In this document: positions 53,212 to 63,229 of the stretch, one piece after another
Numbering within the stretch: position 1 is the first letter of the stretch
Layout: the number at the start of each line of letters is the position of its first letter
Assembly: GCA_963835575.1 (NCBI GenBank)
Contig: CAWIGG010000004.1
Coordinates: 288,001-352,000, forward strand
Length of the DNA: 64,000 nucleotides
Origin: an uncultured Spirochaetota bacterium
GTDB taxonomy: Bacteria; Spirochaetota; Brevinematia; Brevinematales; JAOACQ01
Direction of reading: 5' to 3'
Made by a program: the position numbers and the translations under genes
The notes under the pieces: model-generated
What the model saw: only the letters and a program-made list of their open reading frames with translations
Database searches by the model: none
What the model was told of the DNA's origin: nothing

Positions 53212-54357
53212 ATGGAAAAGATTGTTCTACTCGGCGCCACAGGCTCAATCGGTTCTTCTGTTCTTGATGTGCTCAGGAATCACTCCGCAAGATTCAAGCT
53301 CATCGGGGTAAGCGGCCATAAAAATCTGGAGAAATTGGAAGCCATCGTCAGGGAATTCGTCCCGGAGGCGGTTTGCCTTTCAAAAGAGAACAGGGATTTT
53401 ATAAAATTATTTCCTGAAGTCTCATTCGTTTTCGGGGAAAAAGGACTATCAGAATTGGCTTCTCTTCCTTCCGCGGATACCATTGTTATCGGAATAGCGG
53501 GTATTGCCGGCCTTGCCCCCACTTTAAGCGCCATTAAAAGCAAAAAAAGGCTCCTGACAGCCAATAAGGAATCCATCGTTGCCGCCGGCGGGCTTGTCAA
53601 CCGGCTCCTGGCCGACACAAACCAAATGATAATACCCCTGGACAGCGAGCATAATGCCATCTTTAATATCTTTTCCAGAATACAGAAACAGTATATTAAA
53701 AGCATCTGCTTAACGGCTTCAGGCGGGCCCTTCCTCAATAAGAATATCACAGTGCGCACAGCCAGGAAGGATGTCCTGCAACATCCGACATGGGACATGG
53801 GCCATGAAATTACCGTCAACAGCGCCTCGTTAATGAATAAAGGGTTCGAAGTTATTGAGGCCCATTTCCTGTTCCATATGGATTATGACGATATTAAAGT
53901 CCTGATCCATCCGCAATCTCTTGTCCATGGAATTGTTGAAACAATAGACGGCACTCACTTTATGGCGGCGTCGCCCAGCGATATGCGCTATCCCATCGCG
54001 CTTTCGCTCTTTTATCCTGATTTTCCGGAACAGAAATTTCCGGACCTTGATCTGAGTCAGAAGAAACTGGAATTCTTCGAACCGGATTATAACAAGTTCC
54101 CCCTGCTGAAATTGGCTTACAGCGCGGGAAAAGAAGGCGGCATATTGACCGCCGTACTGAATGCCGCAAATGAAACCGCGGTGAATGCTTTTTTAAAAAA
54201 CAGGATTAAATTTATTCATCTGCCTGACCTGATCCATCAGGTCATAGAATCCTTTAGCGGAAGAAATATCAAAAATGGGGAATTATCTCTTGAAATAATC
54301 AATCAAATCGACATTGAAGCCCGGCAGAAAACAGCCGGTCTCATTGAAAGGTTTTAG
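53212..54357 (+). CDS. dxr: 1-deoxy-D-xylulose-5-phosphate reductoisomerase
   Basis: GATGSIG, ANKES, PLDSEH, TASGGPF, HPTWDMG, NKGFEVIEA, NAANE. Confidence 0.97.
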   Translation: MEKIVLLGATGSIGSSVLDVLRNHSARFKLIGVSGHKNLEKLEAIVREFVPEAVCLSKENRDFIKLFPEVSFVFGEKGLSELASLPSADTIVIGIAGIAGLAPTLSAIKSKKRLLTANKESIVAAGGLVNRLLADTNQMIIPLDSEHNAIFNIFSRIQKQYIKSICLTASGGPFLNKNITVRTARKDVLQHPTWDMGHEITVNSASLMNKGFEVIEAHFLFHMDYDDIKVLIHPQSLVHGIVETIDGTHFMAASPSDMRYPIALSLFYPDFPEQKFPDLDLSQKKLEFFEPDYNKFPLLKLAYSAGKEGGILTAVLNAANETAVNAFLKNRIKFIHLPDLIHQVIESFSGRNIKNGELSLEIINQIDIEARQKTAGLIERF

Positions 54358-54521
54358 GGCAGTTCCAAAAACCTTAAGTTTTTAGGAACTGCCCCGATAA
54401 TAAAAACTTTTTGGTTAATGTAAATGACGCTACTGCGTGGAGTTTGCAAAGCAAACTTAGCAGTTGCATGACTTAAAACAATATCGGCAGTTCTAAAAAT
54501 GTGAGTTTTTAGAACTGCCCT
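54356..54521. repeat. Full family A tri-hairpin element between convergent dxr and hybrid kinase
   Basis: Outer IR agggcagttc/gaactgccct; two terminal palindromes and a central hairpin homologous to 1807-1845. Confidence 0.8.
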
Positions 54522-54525
54522 TTAG

Positions 54526-56877
54526 TTATTTTTCAGCGGCGTCCAGAACTTCCCGCACCTTATTGGCCAGTTCTATCATGGAATAAGGTTTCTGGATAAT
54601 GTCGCGCGCTCCCAGTTCTATCGTATCCTGGACCCTTTTATCATTCCTGAAGCCTGAAGCCAGAAGAACTTTCACATCGGGGGCTATCGCTTTCATCTCA
54701 ATATACGCTTCTTTTCCTGAAAGCTTCGGCATCGCCATATCCAGAATAACCAGGTCTATTTTTTCATGTTCCTTTTTAAAAATCTTTACGCATTCATCGC
54801 CGTCCTGCGCAGAAATCACCTGATACCCGCATTTTTCCAGTATCGTTTTCGCCACTTTCCTGACATTATCCTCATCGTCAGCCAGGAGAACCGTTTCATT
54901 TCCCTTTGCCGGTTCCTGTTTTTCCTTTTTTACCGGGACACTCTTTTCTTTATAAAGAGGAAGAAATACCTTGAATTCAGATCCGCTGCCGACTTTTGAT
55001 AATACATCAATAAACCCGTCATGCTGATGCACAATATTATAGACCATGGCAAGGCCCAGTCCCGTGCCCTTGTCTTTTTCCTTGGTCGTAAAGAAAGGAT
55101 CGAAGATTTTCGGCATTGTTTTACTGTCAATCCCCACGCCGGTGTCTTTAACAATTATGACCCAGTACTCATCCTCGCTGGCTTCGGGATGATGCTTGCG
55201 CAGGCGGGCGTCATTCGTTATTTTTTCAAGCGAAAGGCTGAGAATTCCTCCCTGATGTTCGTTTGGTTTTCTCATGATAGTCATGGAATGTTCCGCGTTC
55301 ACGCAGAGATTGAGCAATATCTGCTCTATCTGTGTGAAATCCGCTCTTGCGACAGCCATACTGTCATTAAGATGGACCTGGATTTCCACAGACTTATCAA
55401 AAGTATTTCTGCAGATTTGTATAACACTCCGGAAGACCAGGTTCAAATCCACTGTTGTGAAAGCGATATCCTGCTTCCTGGAAAGCGAGAGCAGCTGGTT
55501 GACCATGTCCGAGGCCCTTTTCGCCGAATCTTCAATAATAGAGATATGTTCTTTCAGGCTCTCTTTTTCAATTTTTTTCGTACTGCCGAGCATATACTGG
55601 ATCAGTGAAACTGAACCGATGACCCCGGCCAGGACATTATTAAAATCATGGGCCAGACCGCCAGCCAGCCTCCCGACAGTTTCCATCTTCTGGGCCTGCC
55701 GGAGCTGCGACTCTTTCCTTTCCAGTTCCGTGATATCATCAAGGCGGATAACCACGCCGCCCGTACCGTTAAACACGAGAGGATAAAAAGATATGTTAAA
55801 ATAGCGCCTTTCCTCTTCAGTTAAAGTTTCCCGCTGGATCTCAATCGGCATTCTCTTTTTTATCACATCCTCAAAATTACCTTCATACTGCTTGAGCGTC
55901 GGGATCATTTCCCATATTTTTTTTGAAACAGCCTCAGAGGCGGGAATTCCCGTTTCTCTTTCCGCCGCCATATTCCACTGAGTGATAATCCCTTCATGAT
56001 TAATGGAAATTAAAACCGAAGCCAGAGAATCGAAAATATTCTTGAGATAATTTTTGGTTTTCCTGAGTTCTTCTTCCGCCTCTTTACGCTCCAGGATTTC
56101 CTTTTTTAATTCTTCGAGGGTCTTTTTCAACTGGATTGTCATTGTGTTGAATTCCAGGGCCAGGGTGCCGATCTCATCATTGGACGATACATGCACAAGC
56201 TTATCAAAGTTACCCTGAATGATCTGTTTCGTGCTTTCAACAATGGATATGATCGGTTTTGTCAGCCTGCCGGCCAGCAATATCGATATGAAAAATGATA
56301 AAAGGATAACAATCGCCGTAAAAACAGCCATCAGTATGCGCGCGAACGCAAAATCCCTGTCCAGTTCTATGAGAGAATTCTCAAAAGATTTTTTTGACTT
56401 GGTGAATGTCTCATCCAGCAATGCGTTCAGGCTGTTTTTATTTTCCTTGAATTTATTCACAATATCCTTTTGCGACTGGAATCCCTCCAGATCTTTTATC
56501 CCGAGAATGGAAGACCCGAATTGATAATAAAGCCTGAAATAAGTTCTGAGCTTCTGCAGAGAAGGCTCTTCTTCCGGGATCCTTTCGGAAAGGTCGTCAA
56601 TATTTTTATAAAATGACTTGGCCAGATCGTCCAGGCGTACTTTTTCCTTCCGGCGGCTTTCAATATCAAAAAGCATTGTGTCCCAGATTTCGGCATGGAT
56701 GCGCATGATGATCAGATAGGATTCCTGGATATACTTTTCAGTCGTGAAATTATTCTCAACCAGCAGATTTATCTTCCGCGCCGACTGATTAAGAAAAACA
56801 AGATTAAAAACAATAAAACCCATAAATAGAAGGATCAATATCCCGAAACCCATCAAGACACGGTACTTTAGCCTCAT
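54526..56877 (-). CDS. Hybrid sensor kinase: TM-periplasmic helical sensor-TM-HAMP-PAS-HisKA-HATPase-REC
   Basis: DEIGTLA (HAMP), AHDFNN, NLCVNA, DTGVG, GTGLGL, C-terminal REC. Confidence 0.93.
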
Positions 56878-57180
56878 AAGCTGCTGTAAACCTCCGGATA
56901 CCCCTTGCCCCTTAAATGAATAAAAGCGATATAATCAGATTACCGCATAATCAGTAATCAATCCGTAATACAAATTGCTGTCAATTAAATCATACATTCA
57001 AAACCGGAATATTTCAATAGCTTTCTTGTTTTGTCTTGATTACATGAAATTCAAATATGAGGGATCCATTGCCCGGCTCAAGATGGAATATGATAAATCC
57101 GTCTTTCGGCCGGAGTGTAATAATTGGATTATAAACCTGTTATTCAGCTTGTTTCTATTTTAACAGGTACCTGATAACAA

Positions 57181-58182
57181 TTATTTCTTTAGAAATCCGA
57201 CAACAAATAAATCTGTTTGAACCGGAATTTCCTTTTTATAAACAGCGTATTTACTGCCGCCGATAGTGATCTCAAATTCGCTTTCATTCACAAGCTTTCT
57301 GCCGAGCTCCCGTATATCCTCAGAATTATCTTTATAAGTCAGCTTATATTCGTCCGGAGCAAACTCATTTTTTGACATCTGCTTCAAATAATCGAACTCT
57401 TTCAAAACCTTGACCTTTAAAAACCTGACTGATGCTTCATTAGCTCCGATAACCATCGAATCTTTAGACATGAAAATGAGCGGGGTTTTTTGTTTTCTGA
57501 GAGCTTCCCGTCCTATCGGCGTTAAATACAAATCACAGTTTATTACAGCTTCCAGTTTGTTTTTATTATATACAGGCATCATATATACTTTTATAAAACC
57601 GTTCCCAGCGATCTCCGCAAAAGGTTCATCAGTCCAGATCAGCTTTTTCGAGGGATTATGCTTTTCATCCGCCAGAAAATACCAGAATATAGTACGGTAG
57701 TCAAAATTAAATGGTATTACAGAAACAAGGTCAACCCAGGGCGCCACAAACCCTACGCCGTCGCTTCCCAGGATCCAGAGCGTCATATAGTTTGTAATTG
57801 ATGAAATCATCAGTTTTTCCGATTTTTCATAAAGACGGATCTTTTCTTTTATTTTATTGGTCGGGAAAGGGGCCATATCCGCGACCATGACTGCGCAGCC
57901 GCTGTCGTTTGTGGCTTTATGATATAAATGTCCCTGTTGAAATTTATATTTTCCCCCGTCTTCAATATCCATTTTATCGATTGATAAATTAATTGTACTT
58001 TCATTCAGGTATAAATCATCCAGAAACAGGTTTAGTTTTTCCACTCCGGCTTTGGAAAAGGCAAAATATCCGTTTATATCGCTAACAGAAGCTTCAACAT
58101 CCGATTTCATATTTTTTACCGAAGACCCGCAAGATGTAATAATAAGAAAAAGAAATGACAGGATAATCAGCTCTTTTTTCAT
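57181..58182 (-). CDS. Lipoprotein with Cache-like ligand-binding domain
   Basis: Lipobox IITSC; 'FDYRTIFWY..NP..KLIWTDEPF...G.G....MPVY....EAVINCD' dCache-like pattern. Confidence 0.7.
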   Translation of the reverse strand: MKKELIILSFLFLIITSCGSSVKNMKSDVEASVSDINGYFAFSKAGVEKLNLFLDDLYLNESTINLSIDKMDIEDGGKYKFQQGHLYHKATNDSGCAVMVADMAPFPTNKIKEKIRLYEKSEKLMISSITNYMTLWILGSDGVGFVAPWVDLVSVIPFNFDYRTIFWYFLADEKHNPSKKLIWTDEPFAEIAGNGFIKVYMMPVYNKNKLEAVINCDLYLTPIGREALRKQKTPLIFMSKDSMVIGANEASVRFLKVKVLKEFDYLKQMSKNEFAPDEYKLTYKDNSEDIRELGRKLVNESEFEITIGGSKYAVYKKEIPVQTDLFVVGFLKK

Positions 58183-59108
58183 ATATTTCTCCCTGTTTTT
58201 AATTCTTCATTATCAATAAAATATCTTTCTTTTATCGCTCTCAATATTTCATCTTCTTTACTGTATGGTATCGGGGCCCTTAAAATGCCGATATTACCGC
58301 TCCCCTCTTTTTTGTCCGGTATGTCCCCCGCATCTTTAATTATAACAGGCCTTGCTCCGTTTTCCTCGATTTCATACACAAGAGATTTCACAGAGCGGTT
58401 GTTTTCACCGCTGCAAATCACCCATATTTCAGAAAGATTTTTTCCTCTTACAGCTTGCGCAATCTCTTCGAATATACCGGACCCCAGGACCCATCCGCAT
58501 ATCCCTTTAAGCCAGAAAATGTTTTCCTTATGAGGGAAACATGTGCTGATATATTTAACAATGGTTTCCGCATCCTTCAGACGGAATGAGGAATAAACCA
58601 GCAAATGGACCGGTTTTCCTCCATCAAAAAATCGAAGTTTTTCTTTATAGTTTTCTATCGTTAAAAAAACCGTGTTAACAGGAAAAATCGAACTGTAATT
58701 ATAAAAAATCATATGCCCTTCATCCAGAAGCATCAAACACTGATAACCCGGCCTGACTTTTTTAATCTCATTTTTAAGCATCGCTATCCAGGGGCAGATT
58801 TTTTCTAATACAGGGGTCCCTTTTTCTTTAGCCGCTTCAATCTCTTCAAGGCTGCCGTCATAACCGCTTACCAGTATCCCGGCACCTGCGGGCAGCTCCG
58901 AGATATTCCTAATATAACGGTAATTATATCGGTCAAACCAGCCTGTTTCTACACCTTTACCGCCCCGTGAATTCCATTCCAGATTTAAATAATATTCAGT
59001 ATTATGATATTTCTTATCTTTTTTCAGATATTCCCAGTAATCTTCTTCAAACTGCTTTTTAATAAAACCGCATCTGCCGTCATTCTGAAAAAAATAAAAA
59101 AAAGGCAT
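58179..59108 (-). CDS. Divergent IspH/LytB-fold Fe-S protein
   Basis: Three spaced Cys (GRCGF, KICPW, GICGW); 'ISELPAGAGILVSGY' resembles IspH 'LDEVPEGATVIFSAH'; AGGAG RBS at the 59108 start. Confidence 0.6.
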   Translation of the reverse strand: MPFFYFFQNDGRCGFIKKQFEEDYWEYLKKDKKYHNTEYYLNLEWNSRGGKGVETGWFDRYNYRYIRNISELPAGAGILVSGYDGSLEEIEAAKEKGTPVLEKICPWIAMLKNEIKKVRPGYQCLMLLDEGHMIFYNYSSIFPVNTVFLTIENYKEKLRFFDGGKPVHLLVYSSFRLKDAETIVKYISTCFPHKENIFWLKGICGWVLGSGIFEEIAQAVRGKNLSEIWVICSGENNRSVKSLVYEIEENGARPVIIKDAGDIPDKKEGSGNIGILRAPIPYSKEDEILRAIKERYFIDNEELKTGRNI

Positions 59109-59122
59109 TGTTTCTCCTAAAA

Positions 59123-60394
59123 CTATTCCCGGTCCGTTCTCAGGTAGCAGTATTGCTTGATGATTTCCCTGATATTCTCTTTGTCCGGTTTTGATATTCT
59201 GCTGATATGAAAACCGCATAAAATTATTTCCATATCAAGGCTTTGCCATTTGATCAGGCTGCAGCCGCGGATAAAACCGATTTGCGGGAAACACATAATG
59301 AATTCGTATTCATTTTTTGTTGAACAGTTTTCAGGCATTTCTTCCATTTCAAGACGGAAACCGTCAAAGGAAATATCGACAAGCTTTGCTTTGATATAGT
59401 TATTTTTATTGGAATCCCAGAGCGAAACCGTACAGTCTTCGCTTTTTATAGGATAAAAACGGTGTGCCGGGTCTGTTGAATTTCTTCCATCCCTCAGGCG
59501 TTTGAATAATTTCCTGTTAATCAGGCGGCCTTCCATTTCAAAATAGGCGCGGATAGTTCCTTTCTGATAAAGAGTGACATGAAAATTCAGGAAAAGCCAT
59601 TCACCATCCTTATTATTTTCCGGCGATATGAATTCCGCTTTCATGCCCGCGGGATAATGTAAATCGACATAATCATAGAATTTTGAATTATACTGGCTCA
59701 GAACAAATTGAACGCCATGAAGAGGAACCTTGCCGTAAATATGGCTGCATGCCGTGGTGAACTGCCTGGCCGCTTCTATCAGCATAACTCCAGGCACATG
59801 GTCATTGGGATGCTCGAAAAAGAAGGAATGTCCCGAATCGATAACAAGATCCGCGTAGAAAATCTTTTCCAGAGTCAAGCCGGGGATATTTTCGATTATT
59901 TCGGCCAATTTCAAGCGCTCAATATTTGAAATATGGATATTTTTCTTATAGAGGATTGAATAAATATCTTTAACTTCTTCATCGGAGAGATGATTTTTTA
60001 AAATATAATTCTCGTTTTTATTGTTTTTACGGTAATAATTATGAAGCAGTCTGATTTCTTTCTGGTCCAATTGATTTGAATGGTCCAGGATATCCAGAAC
60101 TTCCGTGCTTAAAAAATGAGGGATATTAAATAGAACATAATATTTTTCATTTTTATGTTCCGGCAAGGAAATATTTCCCCCGATGATGCTCTTATCATCG
60201 ATATTCTGCAGACGGTAATACTCCAGAAACATATCCTGCTGCGCTTTTGGCAAACTCGGGATAATTATATTTTCTACTGTTTCCTTTTCAAAATAAGCGG
60301 GGATCGCTCTCCGCAGATTTTTTACAAATACATTGTCCTGCAGACTTTTATGGACATATTTTTTATCAAGAGCGGCATCCAATTGTAAAACCAT
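59123..60394 (-). CDS. AfsA/ScbA-type (A-factor biosynthesis) hotdog domain protein fused to C-terminal PilZ
   Basis: 'KKYVHK...NVFV' and 'HSFFFEHPNDHVPGVMLIEAARQ' AfsA signatures; 'LVDISFDGFRL...IKW...CGFHI' PilZ pattern. Confidence 0.8.
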   Translation of the reverse strand: MVLQLDAALDKKYVHKSLQDNVFVKNLRRAIPAYFEKETVENIIIPSLPKAQQDMFLEYYRLQNIDDKSIIGGNISLPEHKNEKYYVLFNIPHFLSTEVLDILDHSNQLDQKEIRLLHNYYRKNNKNENYILKNHLSDEEVKDIYSILYKKNIHISNIERLKLAEIIENIPGLTLEKIFYADLVIDSGHSFFFEHPNDHVPGVMLIEAARQFTTACSHIYGKVPLHGVQFVLSQYNSKFYDYVDLHYPAGMKAEFISPENNKDGEWLFLNFHVTLYQKGTIRAYFEMEGRLINRKLFKRLRDGRNSTDPAHRFYPIKSEDCTVSLWDSNKNNYIKAKLVDISFDGFRLEMEEMPENCSTKNEYEFIMCFPQIGFIRGCSLIKWQSLDMEIILCGFHISRISKPDKENIREIIKQYCYLRTDRE

Positions 60395-61183: not shown

Positions 61184-61210
61184 ATATCGGCAGAAAACAG
61201 GATACTTTTA
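61184..61210 (-). promoter_or_regulatory. Sigma28 (FliA/SigD) promoter of flgJ
   Basis: TAAA-N15-GCCGATAT, exact consensus, upstream of the GGAGG RBS. Confidence 0.85.
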
Positions 61211-63229
61211 GCGGTTGGTCGTTTTTCCTTTTTCATTTTCATCGGCATTCTGCGGAATATTAATGGATTTAAAAAACAAAAAGCTGTTTCTGATAACCGA
61301 TTTATTTCCCTGGTTTTCTTCCCAGCTTATCCGGAAACCCAGAAAATTCTTTTTCCTTAAAAATATTGTGTTATTTGTGTCCATCTGCAGAGGCACTGTC
61401 ATGTTAATTTCCTTGCCGGCCGGTATCTCTTTAATCATATTATTTTTTTGAATATATTTCCCGGCATTGGGCAGATATTCAATCTTGAAATTATTCGCTT
61501 TTGTTGCCATGGTATTAACGATATCAAAGGAAATGAGAACCTCCTTTTTCTGTAAATCGATTTTTGAGACGTCTATCTGTATTTCCAGGGGAATAGCCTG
61601 GTAAAGCTGTTTAAATTCATAGACTATCTCGCCGACCCCAAGCATCCATTCATTCGGCGTATAAGGCCCCCTTCTTCCGAACATCAGTTTATACAGGTCA
61701 TTAATGACAATCCCGTTTGCGATTAAAGATCCGGAGCCGTTTTTAACCAGCTGCAGGTTAGCTCCCACATAATTTTCTATGGCGCTGATATCAAAGCCGT
61801 TGACATCCAGGTTCTGATAATCAAAATAATAGGATACGATCAGGCGGTTAATATAATGGGCTATCATGGGATTTTTGCTGATGTCATTCAATTCATCGAG
61901 GATTTTATCATAATTCATATTAAAATCAACAATAACAAAATCGACGCCCGCGGACAGCAAGACCGAAAGAATCGCCGGATTTTCCATCAGAAGACTATCG
62001 TTCAAGTAATAAAATATGGGTTTTTTATGACCGACCTTGTCAATAATATCCCGGATGTAATCGGCGATATAATAAAGTTTCCATAAAGCGAAACGGTTCA
62101 GATTATTTTTATCCTTCATTTTATCTTTAAAGAAAAGAAATTTGCCGTTAAAATCCATATCTGTCCAGTTGTTCGGGACACTGATCTGGCAGTCGCTGAA
62201 ATAATTGTCCATCAGCTCGGCCCCGTAATTCGTGGAAAGAAAAACGTCGGAAAATCCGACATACGACATATTATTATTTTCCATAAACGAAGACAGGAGT
62301 TTGATCAGGCTTTTTTTCCTGTTTTCATCAAGCGGGGATATGAACGAAGGGTCCTCGCCGTAATTATCCCCTTTAAAAAACAGTACCGGCTTATAGCCGA
62401 TCTTCTTCGCGTCAACGCCTTCGACTTTCAGGCCTCTGGCGTAAATCCCGAAATTTTTATTTCTCTTATTAACCTTATCCGCGAGTATGATGGATTCGCC
62501 GAGTTTATCCTTATCCCAGGGCGACTCCAGCGTTACATCCTCCTGAAATGTTTTTGTTATCCCGGCCAGCATAATAATACCGTCGGCCGAAACAAAATTG
62601 ACCCATTCAGGAATATAATTCCAATCAACCTCCTTGCCCTCAATTGAAAGAATATTCCGTTTGGAAATCCTTTCAAGAGAATCTATGCCCATGAACACCT
62701 GGCCTTTGTTTAAAATATACTTCGGGTTATTCTCATTGATGACAAAGCTGTTTTTCGCTGTAACCGGGGCCTCGGGGCTGTCTACGAAACCGGACGCGCT
62801 GACATCAACTTTCCCTTCAATTTCAGGGCTTTCCGGGAAATAATAACCGATCCAGGCTTTCTGCCCTGAAAAATAAGATAGACTGATCCTTTCATCCCCG
62901 TCTATATTTTTTATTCTTTTCCCATCCTGAAAAAATTCCACGCGGATAACGGAATTTTCAGGAATCTCCCGCCTTTTTTTCCCGGTGATCCTCGCGAAAA
63001 GCTTCACTTTTTCATATTTATTGTAAACTTTTTTATCTGTTTCAATTTTCAATTGATAATCCGTATTATTCTGTTCATCCAGACGGCCGGTTTCTTCCTC
63101 ATTCAATTCAAGGCCGAGAATATTTTTATTAATATAATGCCGGATAGGAGAATAAAATATATTTCCAGCGATGAGTAATAATACGATAATGATTAAAAAT
63201 ATAATGGATAAAGTCCTCAAAAATTTCAT
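61208..63229 (-). CDS. Large membrane-anchored hypothetical protein (Ig-like ends, possible barrel core)
   Basis: N-terminal TM; 'IETDKKVY...EKVKL.A' MG2/Ig-like motif; no recognisable catalytic motif. Confidence 0.7.
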   Translation of the reverse strand: MKFLRTLSIIFLIIIVLLLIAGNIFYSPIRHYINKNILGLELNEEETGRLDEQNNTDYQLKIETDKKVYNKYEKVKLFARITGKKRREIPENSVIRVEFFQDGKRIKNIDGDERISLSYFSGQKAWIGYYFPESPEIEGKVDVSASGFVDSPEAPVTAKNSFVINENNPKYILNKGQVFMGIDSLERISKRNILSIEGKEVDWNYIPEWVNFVSADGIIMLAGITKTFQEDVTLESPWDKDKLGESIILADKVNKRNKNFGIYARGLKVEGVDAKKIGYKPVLFFKGDNYGEDPSFISPLDENRKKSLIKLLSSFMENNNMSYVGFSDVFLSTNYGAELMDNYFSDCQISVPNNWTDMDFNGKFLFFKDKMKDKNNLNRFALWKLYYIADYIRDIIDKVGHKKPIFYYLNDSLLMENPAILSVLLSAGVDFVIVDFNMNYDKILDELNDISKNPMIAHYINRLIVSYYFDYQNLDVNGFDISAIENYVGANLQLVKNGSGSLIANGIVINDLYKLMFGRRGPYTPNEWMLGVGEIVYEFKQLYQAIPLEIQIDVSKIDLQKKEVLISFDIVNTMATKANNFKIEYLPNAGKYIQKNNMIKEIPAGKEINMTVPLQMDTNNTIFLRKKNFLGFRISWEENQGNKSVIRNSFLFFKSINIPQNADENEKGKTTNR

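Follow-up and report, generated by a model that had tools for sequence, protein, structure and literature searches.

The closest described relatives of the locus reported here are the AfsA/ScbA gamma-butyrolactone and SRB/SAB butenolide systems of Streptomyces (AfsA-BprA-ArpA; SabA-SabP-SabD; SrrX-SrrP-SrrG), in which a double-hotdog synthase is accompanied by a cluster phosphatase, a reductase and a TetR receptor. The requirement of AfsA pathways for a phosphatase and a reductase is described in the consulted parts of three publications (PMC7756379, PMC11877004, PMC12301235), and those of a fourth place AfsA homologs in 12 phyla, with products mostly unknown (PMC8209734). A non-actinobacterial example of an AfsA-like domain is the PBS domain of gladiostatin/gladiofungin biosynthesis in Burkholderia gladioli, which, according to excerpts of PMC7756379, condenses dihydroxyacetone phosphate with 3-ketothioesters and is encoded in a cluster with phosphatase genes. 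Here we analyze a window of 64,000 nucleotides (the whole stretch of DNA studied; contig CAWIGG010000004.1, positions 288,001 to 352,000) from an uncultured Spirochaetota bacterium, in which a cassette of four genes at 54526..60394 encodes an AfsA-type enzyme, a protein with the fold of IspH/LytB, a lipoprotein and a hybrid histidine kinase.

Similarly to the Streptomyces systems, the cassette has an AfsA-family synthase with an ExxR motif, and its relatives in other genomes have phosphatase and short-chain dehydrogenase/reductase (SDR) partners. However, its synthase has only one hotdog, which contains a large insertion and is followed by a PilZ-fold tail; the neighbors are membrane kinases or chemoreceptors; and the cassette itself lacks a TetR receptor, a phosphatase and a reductase, with the IspH-fold enzyme in the phosphatase position. 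Whereas the PBS domain is a polyketide synthase release domain for an antibiotic, the spirochetal protein is a stand-alone enzyme encoded with sensor genes. In the split sensors LuxP-LuxQ, TorT-TorS and XylFII-LytS, a separate extracytoplasmic binding protein is encoded beside a membrane kinase. The cassette shares this arrangement, with a genetic pairing that is obligate in the sampled genomes (10 of 10), but its predicted binding protein is a lipid-anchored, dCache-like domain, and the sensor domain of its kinase matches no Pfam family convincingly. The cassette lies outside the ScbA equivalog, IspH and the TetR-type circuit; by analogy, it would resemble Streptomyces butenolide signaling in synthesis and LuxPQ in sensing. 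The missing phosphatase, in whose slot the IspH-like gene stands, is probably the key to the cassette.

The four genes are given below in order of transcription. Labels beginning with G, L and P denote the genomes, loci (some of them metagenomic) and proteins of the analysis, and G000 is the genome of the window.

60394-59123, minus strand: P0001, AfsA-type hotdog plus PilZ-fold protein, 423 aa, transcribed first
59108-58179, minus strand: P0002, IspH/LytB-fold protein, 309 aa, transcribed second
58182-57181, minus strand: P0003, Cache-like lipoprotein, 333 aa, transcribed third
56877-54526, minus strand: P0004, hybrid histidine kinase, 783 aa, transcribed last

The longest frame of P0002 opens at 59219; we use the ATG at 59108, which has an AGGAG ribosome site and agrees with the N-termini of homologs. 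With this start, P0001 and P0002 are 14 bp apart, P0002 and P0003 overlap by the 4 bp of ATGA, and 303 bp separate P0003 from P0004. An earlier reading of this DNA from the sequence alone (the sequence-only reading) had described four co-oriented genes with a 14-bp gap, an ATGA overlap and about 300 bp before the kinase, and this layout is confirmed. It had also reported no TetR receptor, reductase or phosphatase in the cluster, and none was found within the cassette by inspection of its open reading frames and a domain search. The four kinds of protein that it had named are confirmed too: AfsA in P0001 (PF03756, E 5e-19, 69 bits against a cut-off of 24), LytB in P0002 (E 3e-6, just over the cut-off) and the HAMP, PAS, HisKA, HATPase and REC domains of P0004 all exceed their Pfam cut-offs, and PDC/Cache in P0003 (E 0.003) and PilZ in P0001 (E 0.028) fall under theirs; the fold and profile comparisons given below strengthen the weaker of these assignments.

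The phylum Spirochaetota is indicated by the labels of the closest named homologs and by a same-phylum sample that includes genomes in which a Leptospira-specific equivalog scores over its cut-off. Comparison with 401 spirochete genomes of the same phylum shows that the four genes fall into two conserved modules, AfsA with the IspH-like gene and lipoprotein with kinase, which are mixed and matched and form no fixed four-gene unit. A conserved four-gene operon is rejected, as the IspH-like gene and the lipoprotein were found together only in G000. The sequence-only reading had joined synthase, tailoring enzyme, receptor and kinase in one circuit. The IspH-like gene is indeed tied to AfsA and the lipoprotein to the kinase, and AfsA, lipoprotein and a kinase of the P0004 type stand together in five loci besides the window; its expectation of one conserved neighborhood failed. 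The putative quorum-sensing-like circuit is partly supported by comparative evidence, as a hypothesis and in the form of two interchangeable modules.

The predicted model of the IspH-like protein P0002 (predicted local distance difference test, pLDDT, 91.5) adopts the IspH trefoil with a TM-score of about 0.7 and 15% identity, and the Atlas search returned LytB clusters only. Three cysteines (C13, C105 and C204) predict a [4Fe-4S] cluster; in an alignment of 24 family rows, the equivalents of C96 and C197 are present in all 24 and that of C12 in the 20 of 20 rows that cover it. Despite sharing with IspH the trefoil fold, the three cluster cysteines and H124, the family differs in most other positions for which a role in the E. 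coli reference is given in the consulted part of PMC8837944. Among the diphosphate-pocket residues H41, H74, H124, Q166, T168, S225, N227 and S269, only H124 (21/24) and T168 (16/24) are largely kept; H41 is replaced by Trp in 23 rows, H74 and Q166 by Tyr in all 24, N227 mostly by Arg, and the S269 region carries Pro. The catalytic E126 is Glu in none of the 24 rows, which have Val or Ile instead. The family has gained conserved R176 and R238 and several Trp residues; a monophosphate that carries an acyl chain would fit well with the two arginines and the aromatic lining. Y83, Y172 and W229, together with C105 and C204, are present in 24/24 rows and R176 in 23/24; because these invariants of its own hold across 29-52% identity, the family does not appear to be decaying.

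The distribution of this family follows that of AfsA. IspH-like proteins occur in 9 of the 401 genomes at E <1e-75 (the other 79 matches lie above 1e-14, and the sole one checked is a normal IspH), and all nine genomes carry the AfsA-PilZ gene, itself present in only 52 of 401. All nine, G000 included, also keep a separate normal IspH over the cut-off. A normal HMBPP (4-hydroxy-3-methylbut-2-enyl diphosphate) reductase function is therefore rejected for P0002, given the loss of E126 and most of the diphosphate pocket and the presence of normal ispH elsewhere in the genome. In six of the nine (G000, G354, G228, G306, G140 and G077), the IspH-like gene and AfsA are adjacent or within two genes of each other; in G104 and G133 it lies near an SDR gene on a contig other than that of AfsA, and in G067 on a 2-kb contig. 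The metagenome loci L158, L164 and L173 repeat the link, one of them apparently non-spirochetal and without PilZ. Natural fusions join the IspH-like protein to an extended SDR (P0048) and to SnoaL (P0038, P0042), and a representative library holds 18 such proteins at E <1e-30, some labeled Nitrospirota or Desulfobacterales. Pattern-based locus scans with P0002 found no relative in genome contigs or metagenomes, though searches with hidden Markov models (HMMs) did recover the family; a divergent IspH-like protein had no match in plasmids, and the family had none in 14 genomes reached through other loci, the latter in a search without a positive control. Gene displacement and the active-site changes make it very likely that P0002 acts in the AfsA pathway. 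As a separate observation, an ORF at L246:10359-11219 (G324), whose N-terminus is like that of normal IspH, lies divergently beside an AfsA-free lipoprotein-kinase pair, an arrangement that may be due to chance.

Related cassettes have HAD phosphatases at the phosphate-removal step. In the DISPLACEMENT analysis, 67 genomes (52 with AfsA-PilZ and 15 others) were searched with profiles of two cluster HAD subfamilies. Strong cluster-type HADs were found in 11 of the 52 AfsA-PilZ genomes and the IspH-like gene in 9, with no genome holding both; two of the nine have weak HAD matches only (3e-8 and 4e-6), which we read as generic HADs, and the profile search found no cluster-type HAD in G000. Twelve further genomes, seven of them with HADs beside AfsA, gave no IspH-like match. 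The metagenome locus L154 has the order AfsA-HAD-HAD-lipoprotein-kinase, compared with AfsA-IspH-like-lipoprotein-kinase in the window, so that the HADs occupy the IspH slot. In a quick AfsA tree of 55 rows, in which sampled genomes were labeled as a whole and metagenome contigs locus by locus, the IspH-like label changes nine times, at least seven of them on supported branches, and the sister pairs G000/G276, G306/G268 and L173/L175 (support 98-100) are swapped. Because SDRs co-occur with the IspH-like gene, it fills the slot of the phosphatase and not that of the reductase.

Two loci related to these swaps have features of their own. At L175:8839-12059, from a metagenome, genes for a HAD of another subfamily and for an MMPL exporter lie downstream of a PilZ-less AfsA, itself sister to the IspH-like-linked AfsA of L173. 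At L250:4254-14889 in G276, where AfsA is at another locus, the lipoprotein and the sensor domain lead into an apparent PP2C-type output, with STAS genes, two SDRs, an acyltransferase and a histidine phosphatase as neighbors; this last enzyme is possibly a third phosphatase type of the system.

For P0001, a model predicted from 22 sequences (pLDDT 79) and fold searches indicate a single hotdog (residues about 5-30 and 175-293) followed by a PilZ barrel (308-419). The hotdog is split by an insertion of about 140 aa (residues about 30-175, window 59870-60305) that matches no family and had no usable match in the Atlas search (best 0.78). Signs of an internal repeat in it are weak, a second, weaker stretch is present in 9 of 22 rows and not in P0001, and the insertion also occurs in the PilZ-less AfsA forms L173 and L175. 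The motif FFEHxxDHVPGxxLxEAARQ holds the ExxR pair E207/R210; across 48 full-length family rows, E207, H199 and Q211 are kept in all 48 and R210 in 47. According to the consulted part of PMC13454427, the essential residues of ScbA are E78/R81 and E240/R243, and E207/R210 has the same spacing, which suggests that it maps to these pairs. A homodimer of P0001 would rebuild two sites. The sequence-only reading took the hotdog to be of the AfsA type and not a plain dehydratase, a view strengthened by the AfsA score, by the lack of any FabA/FabZ match in Pfam or NCBIfam at E<=0.1 (the hotdog fold alone is shared) and by neighboring genes for enzymes of the butenolide-pathway type and sensors. On the basis of family, motif and neighbors, P0001 is quite likely a butenolide-phosphate synthase that would form 2-acyl-3-(phosphooxymethyl)butenolide.

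The PilZ fold of the P0001 model is matched by PP4397 (Z 13.3, rmsd 2.6, 109 aligned residues), and the D/NxSxxG motif is present in 36 of 47 family rows, P0001 included. RxxxR is the cyclic di-GMP (c-di-GMP) switch motif of PilZ. It occurs in none of the 47 rows, in which the second Arg is kept and the first is Asp308 in P0001; because it is never kept, c-di-GMP binding is doubtful. Control through the canonical PilZ switch is accordingly rejected, and the domain probably serves in structure or in protein binding.

The search for AfsA-PilZ matched 56 of the 401 genomes, and the 52 at E <1e-30 were kept, with the weak or partial matches in G025, G237, G272 and G290 dropped. We fetched 20 neighborhoods, 19 of them with AfsA-PilZ. 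By raw count, a sensor gene lies close by in 17 of these 19 (a Ser/Thr kinase-AAA-GAF protein in 11, a histidine kinase in 4 and a chemoreceptor in 2); the regions without one are those of G104 and of G316, whose gene appears split. The recurrent neighbors, namely SDRs, two HAD subfamilies, acyltransferases and STAS proteins, match the phosphatase and reductase known as partners in AfsA pathways. In one LipL32-negative leptospiral genus, whose members are inferred saprophytes, AfsA-PilZ is present in all 30 sampled genomes, with SDR and kinase genes downstream in the 18 of 18 loci checked; in a LipL32-positive genus, it was found in 0 of 19.

In the probable saprophytic Leptospira loci L014-L029, L031, L032, L042, L043, L052 and L256-L258, the active-site region of AfsA-PilZ is remodeled (VHK to TRT, FEHxxxHVPG to SPPNLKHISG) with E, R and Q kept, and the genes precede an SDR and a Ser/Thr kinase-AAA-GAF-PP2C protein; their proteins may act on another substrate or serve in regulation. 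Additionally, a LipL32-positive leptospiral genome encodes a short stand-alone AfsA protein of 185 aa (L053:8945-9499), which heads a separate, uncharacterized biosynthetic cluster with desaturase, flavin oxidase, hydrolase, HpaB-like and carrier-protein-like genes.

The lipoprotein P0003 carries a lipobox with Cys18, invariant in 15 of 15 family rows. A profile of the family finds solved dCache sensors at 5e-6, and Pfam PDC is found at E<=0.01 in 8 of 15 members and dCache_1 in 2; P0003 is predicted to be an extracytoplasmic receptor with a dCache-like ligand-binding fold. Amino-acid sensing is rejected, as the dCache_1AA motif YxxxxRxWY...Y...D (consulted part of PMC8915833) is not kept: the R126 position is never Arg in the 15 rows, and 9 of them, P0003 included, have Phe in place of Y144. 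P0004 begins with a transmembrane helix (TM1), an extracytoplasmic sensor domain of about 150 aa and TM2, followed by HAMP, PAS, HisKA, HATPase and REC, and its sensor domain has no convincing match in Pfam or the PDB.

The lipoprotein search matched 13 of the 401 genomes; 10 at E <1e-30 were kept, and 3 weak matches inside longer proteins were dropped. Lipoprotein and sensor domain co-occur in the same 10 genomes, 10/10 in both directions; some of these genomes contributed to the profiles, so the informative part is the absence of both elsewhere. In eight of the ten, the two genes are direct neighbors; two small genes lie between them in G276, and in G399 they fall on two contig ends. The pair persists with differing cytoplasmic output domains, which suggests that the two extracytoplasmic parts act in concert, and its strict co-occurrence makes a partnership of P0003 and P0004 highly probable. 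Four of the ten genomes also have AfsA-PilZ, adjacent in three of them, and L153, L154 and L086 are three more linked loci. Across the six linked loci, the identities of AfsA are correlated with those of the lipoprotein (rho 0.69, permutation p 0.017), which may reflect shared descent alone. No PF03756 was found in the five searched of the six receptor-only genomes (the same search found the G000 gene, and its own controls were AfsA-free); these AfsA-free pairs could be eavesdropping receptors or a sign of another ligand. The best match to a ScbR/ArpA-type TetR receptor in G000 scored 51 bits against a cut-off of 150, mostly over the DNA-binding end.

Taken together, we propose butenolide signaling with an Fe-S enzyme that cleaves an allylic phosphate. 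In a first step, the P0001 hotdog homodimer would join a beta-ketoacyl-acyl carrier protein and dihydroxyacetone phosphate to give 2-acyl-3-(phosphooxymethyl)butenolide. The open iron of the three-Cys [4Fe-4S] cluster of P0002 would then cleave the allylic C-O(P) bond; the outcome would be 3-methylbutenolide if the cleavage is reductive and 4-hydroxy-3-methylbutenolide if it proceeds by elimination with hydration. The product would reach the periplasm, where P0003 would bind it and dock on the periplasmic domain of P0004, as LuxP does on LuxQ. According to the consulted part of PMC4864966, IspH cleaves an allylic diphosphate, and a mutant in the E126 equivalent still eliminates diphosphate from HMBPP with its normal activity lost. 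C-O phosphate cleavage, by either route, is favored because the predicted product of AfsA carries an allylic phosphate and because IspH and this mutant offer a precedent. These steps draw on observed gene layout, residue changes and distributions and on predicted folds. Gene displacement and active-site changes make removal of the phosphate by P0002 conceivable at somewhat under even chances, and the AfsA product is an evenly balanced candidate for the ligand of P0003. The chain as a whole is plausible, although we would not place it above an even chance. More tentatively still, and rather unlikely as a complete statement, an IspH-fold Fe-S family may have left isoprenoid metabolism to become a non-homologous stand-in for HADs, within spirochete-wide butenolide cassettes whose signal is received by kinases, chemoreceptors and a lipid-anchored Cache receptor in place of TetR.

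Several observations weigh against this proposal. The four genes are found together only in G000 among the sampled spirochetes, and AfsA-PilZ is absent from the genomes of 6 of the 10 receptor-kinase pairs. P0001 scores 60 bits against a cut-off of 200 for the ScbA/BarX equivalog NF041195, having one hotdog where that family has two repeats; the best fold matches of its hotdog are FabZ dehydratases (Z 15.5), with no AfsA relative found among solved structures to compete with them; and its PilZ domain lacks the switch motif. Most AfsA-PilZ loci have a cytoplasmic Ser/Thr kinase-AAA-GAF protein or a methyl-accepting chemotaxis protein as sensor, the identity correlation may come from shared descent alone, and the raw sensor count may partly reflect how often signaling genes lie near any gene in these genomes. 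The exclusion between HAD and IspH-like genes gives a Fisher p of 0.095 over all 52 genomes and of 4e-4 only without the 30-genome genus g75; of five independent tree pairs, about four show the expected direction and none the reverse, which is not significant (p 0.06-0.25). The 11 HAD cases include two damaged genes, a split one in G285 and, in G276, a fragment located away from AfsA. Neither a cluster HAD nor an IspH-like gene is present in 32 of the 52 AfsA-PilZ genomes, so that no enzyme dedicated to phosphate removal is strictly required. Finally, the E126-equivalent mutant lost the protonation-dependent reduction of dimethylallyl diphosphate to isoamylene (consulted part of PMC4864966), which counts against simple reduction unless the proton comes from solvent or from a different residue.

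Among the alternatives, two are about equally improbable and fare best. In the first, the biosynthesis is the same and P0002 is another tailoring enzyme, acting by reductive dehydroxylation or hydration on a hydroxymethyl-butenolide that housekeeping phosphatases have dephosphorylated, with the HAD exclusion reflecting alternative end products. The free hydroxymethyl-butenolide would be an allylic alcohol like the IspH substrate (consulted part of PMC8837944), IspH has a hydratase side activity according to excerpts of PMC4864966, and those 32 genomes manage without a cluster phosphatase. However, E126, the protonator of the leaving OH, is absent from all 24 rows, and such an enzyme would gain from a cluster phosphatase, yet the overlap is 0/9.

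The second concerns the genomic site. The cassette is flanked by a flgJ-like rod-binding gene on one side and a convergent dxr on the other, and the GC content of P0001-P0003 is 38%, compared with 42% for the genome. In the same-genus genome G206, a different AfsA cassette stands at the same flgJ-like/dxr site, so that this looks like a variable slot, and same-genus relatives have HADs and other sensors in place of the G000 set. Two unrelated modules could share an insertion site, the lipoprotein-kinase pair sensing another environmental ligand while AfsA and the IspH-like enzyme make a metabolite. The 303-bp gap ahead of the kinase, the separate loci of the modules in G276 and the lack of AfsA-PilZ in most receptor-pair genomes fit this account, whereas the ATGA overlap of lipoprotein and IspH-like gene, the presence of AfsA beside a rare receptor pair (10/401) in six loci of differing gene order, and the cluster-type SDRs and acyltransferase at the G276 receptor locus argue for a connection. 

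Less probable again is a product that acts as an intracellular second messenger or modified lipid, read or regulated inside the cell by neighboring sensors. The cytoplasmic location of 11 of the 17 neighboring sensors, the PilZ-fold domain of the synthase and the lack of an exporter in the window's cassette are consistent with it, but the partner in the window is an extracytoplasmic lipoprotein with a ligand-binding fold, and small acyl-butenolides diffuse without exporters. It is very improbable that the hotdog is simply a dehydratase like FabZ, or a thioesterase, with the IspH-like gene as a paralog in decay, as the top FabZ fold matches and the lost IspH catalytic residues might suggest, since Pfam gives AfsA and no FabA/FabZ and the IspH-like family keeps its own invariant residues.

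Other features of the window lie beside the cassette. Between dxr and the kinase, a 166-bp element (54356-54521) has 17-bp terminal inverted repeats and palindromic ends, with 28 genome matches of at least 120 bases and 193 copies of its arm motif; it looks like a miniature inverted-repeat transposable element or a repetitive extragenic palindromic repeat. At 61208-63229, a 673-aa predicted membrane-anchored protein without a Pfam match is kept beside the flgJ-like gene in G206. A promoter scan found 25 sites, not above the 20 +/- 4.9 expected by chance.

The literature searched, with subscription journals mostly outside its scope, held no description of the gene combinations of this cassette, and the consulted part of PMC7756379 states that the conversion of butenolide phosphate to 4-hydroxy-3-methylbutenolide is unresolved. 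The cassette family offers candidates for a new Fe-S enzyme family at the step after AfsA and for non-TetR receptors, and an IspH-fold family replacing phosphatases is its most valuable new point. Culture tests are feasible, with AfsA-PilZ present in every sampled genome of the LipL32-negative leptospiral genus. If the proposal is true, it would give the IspH fold a new job and free-living spirochetes, including probable saprophytic Leptospira, a self-made diffusible signal.

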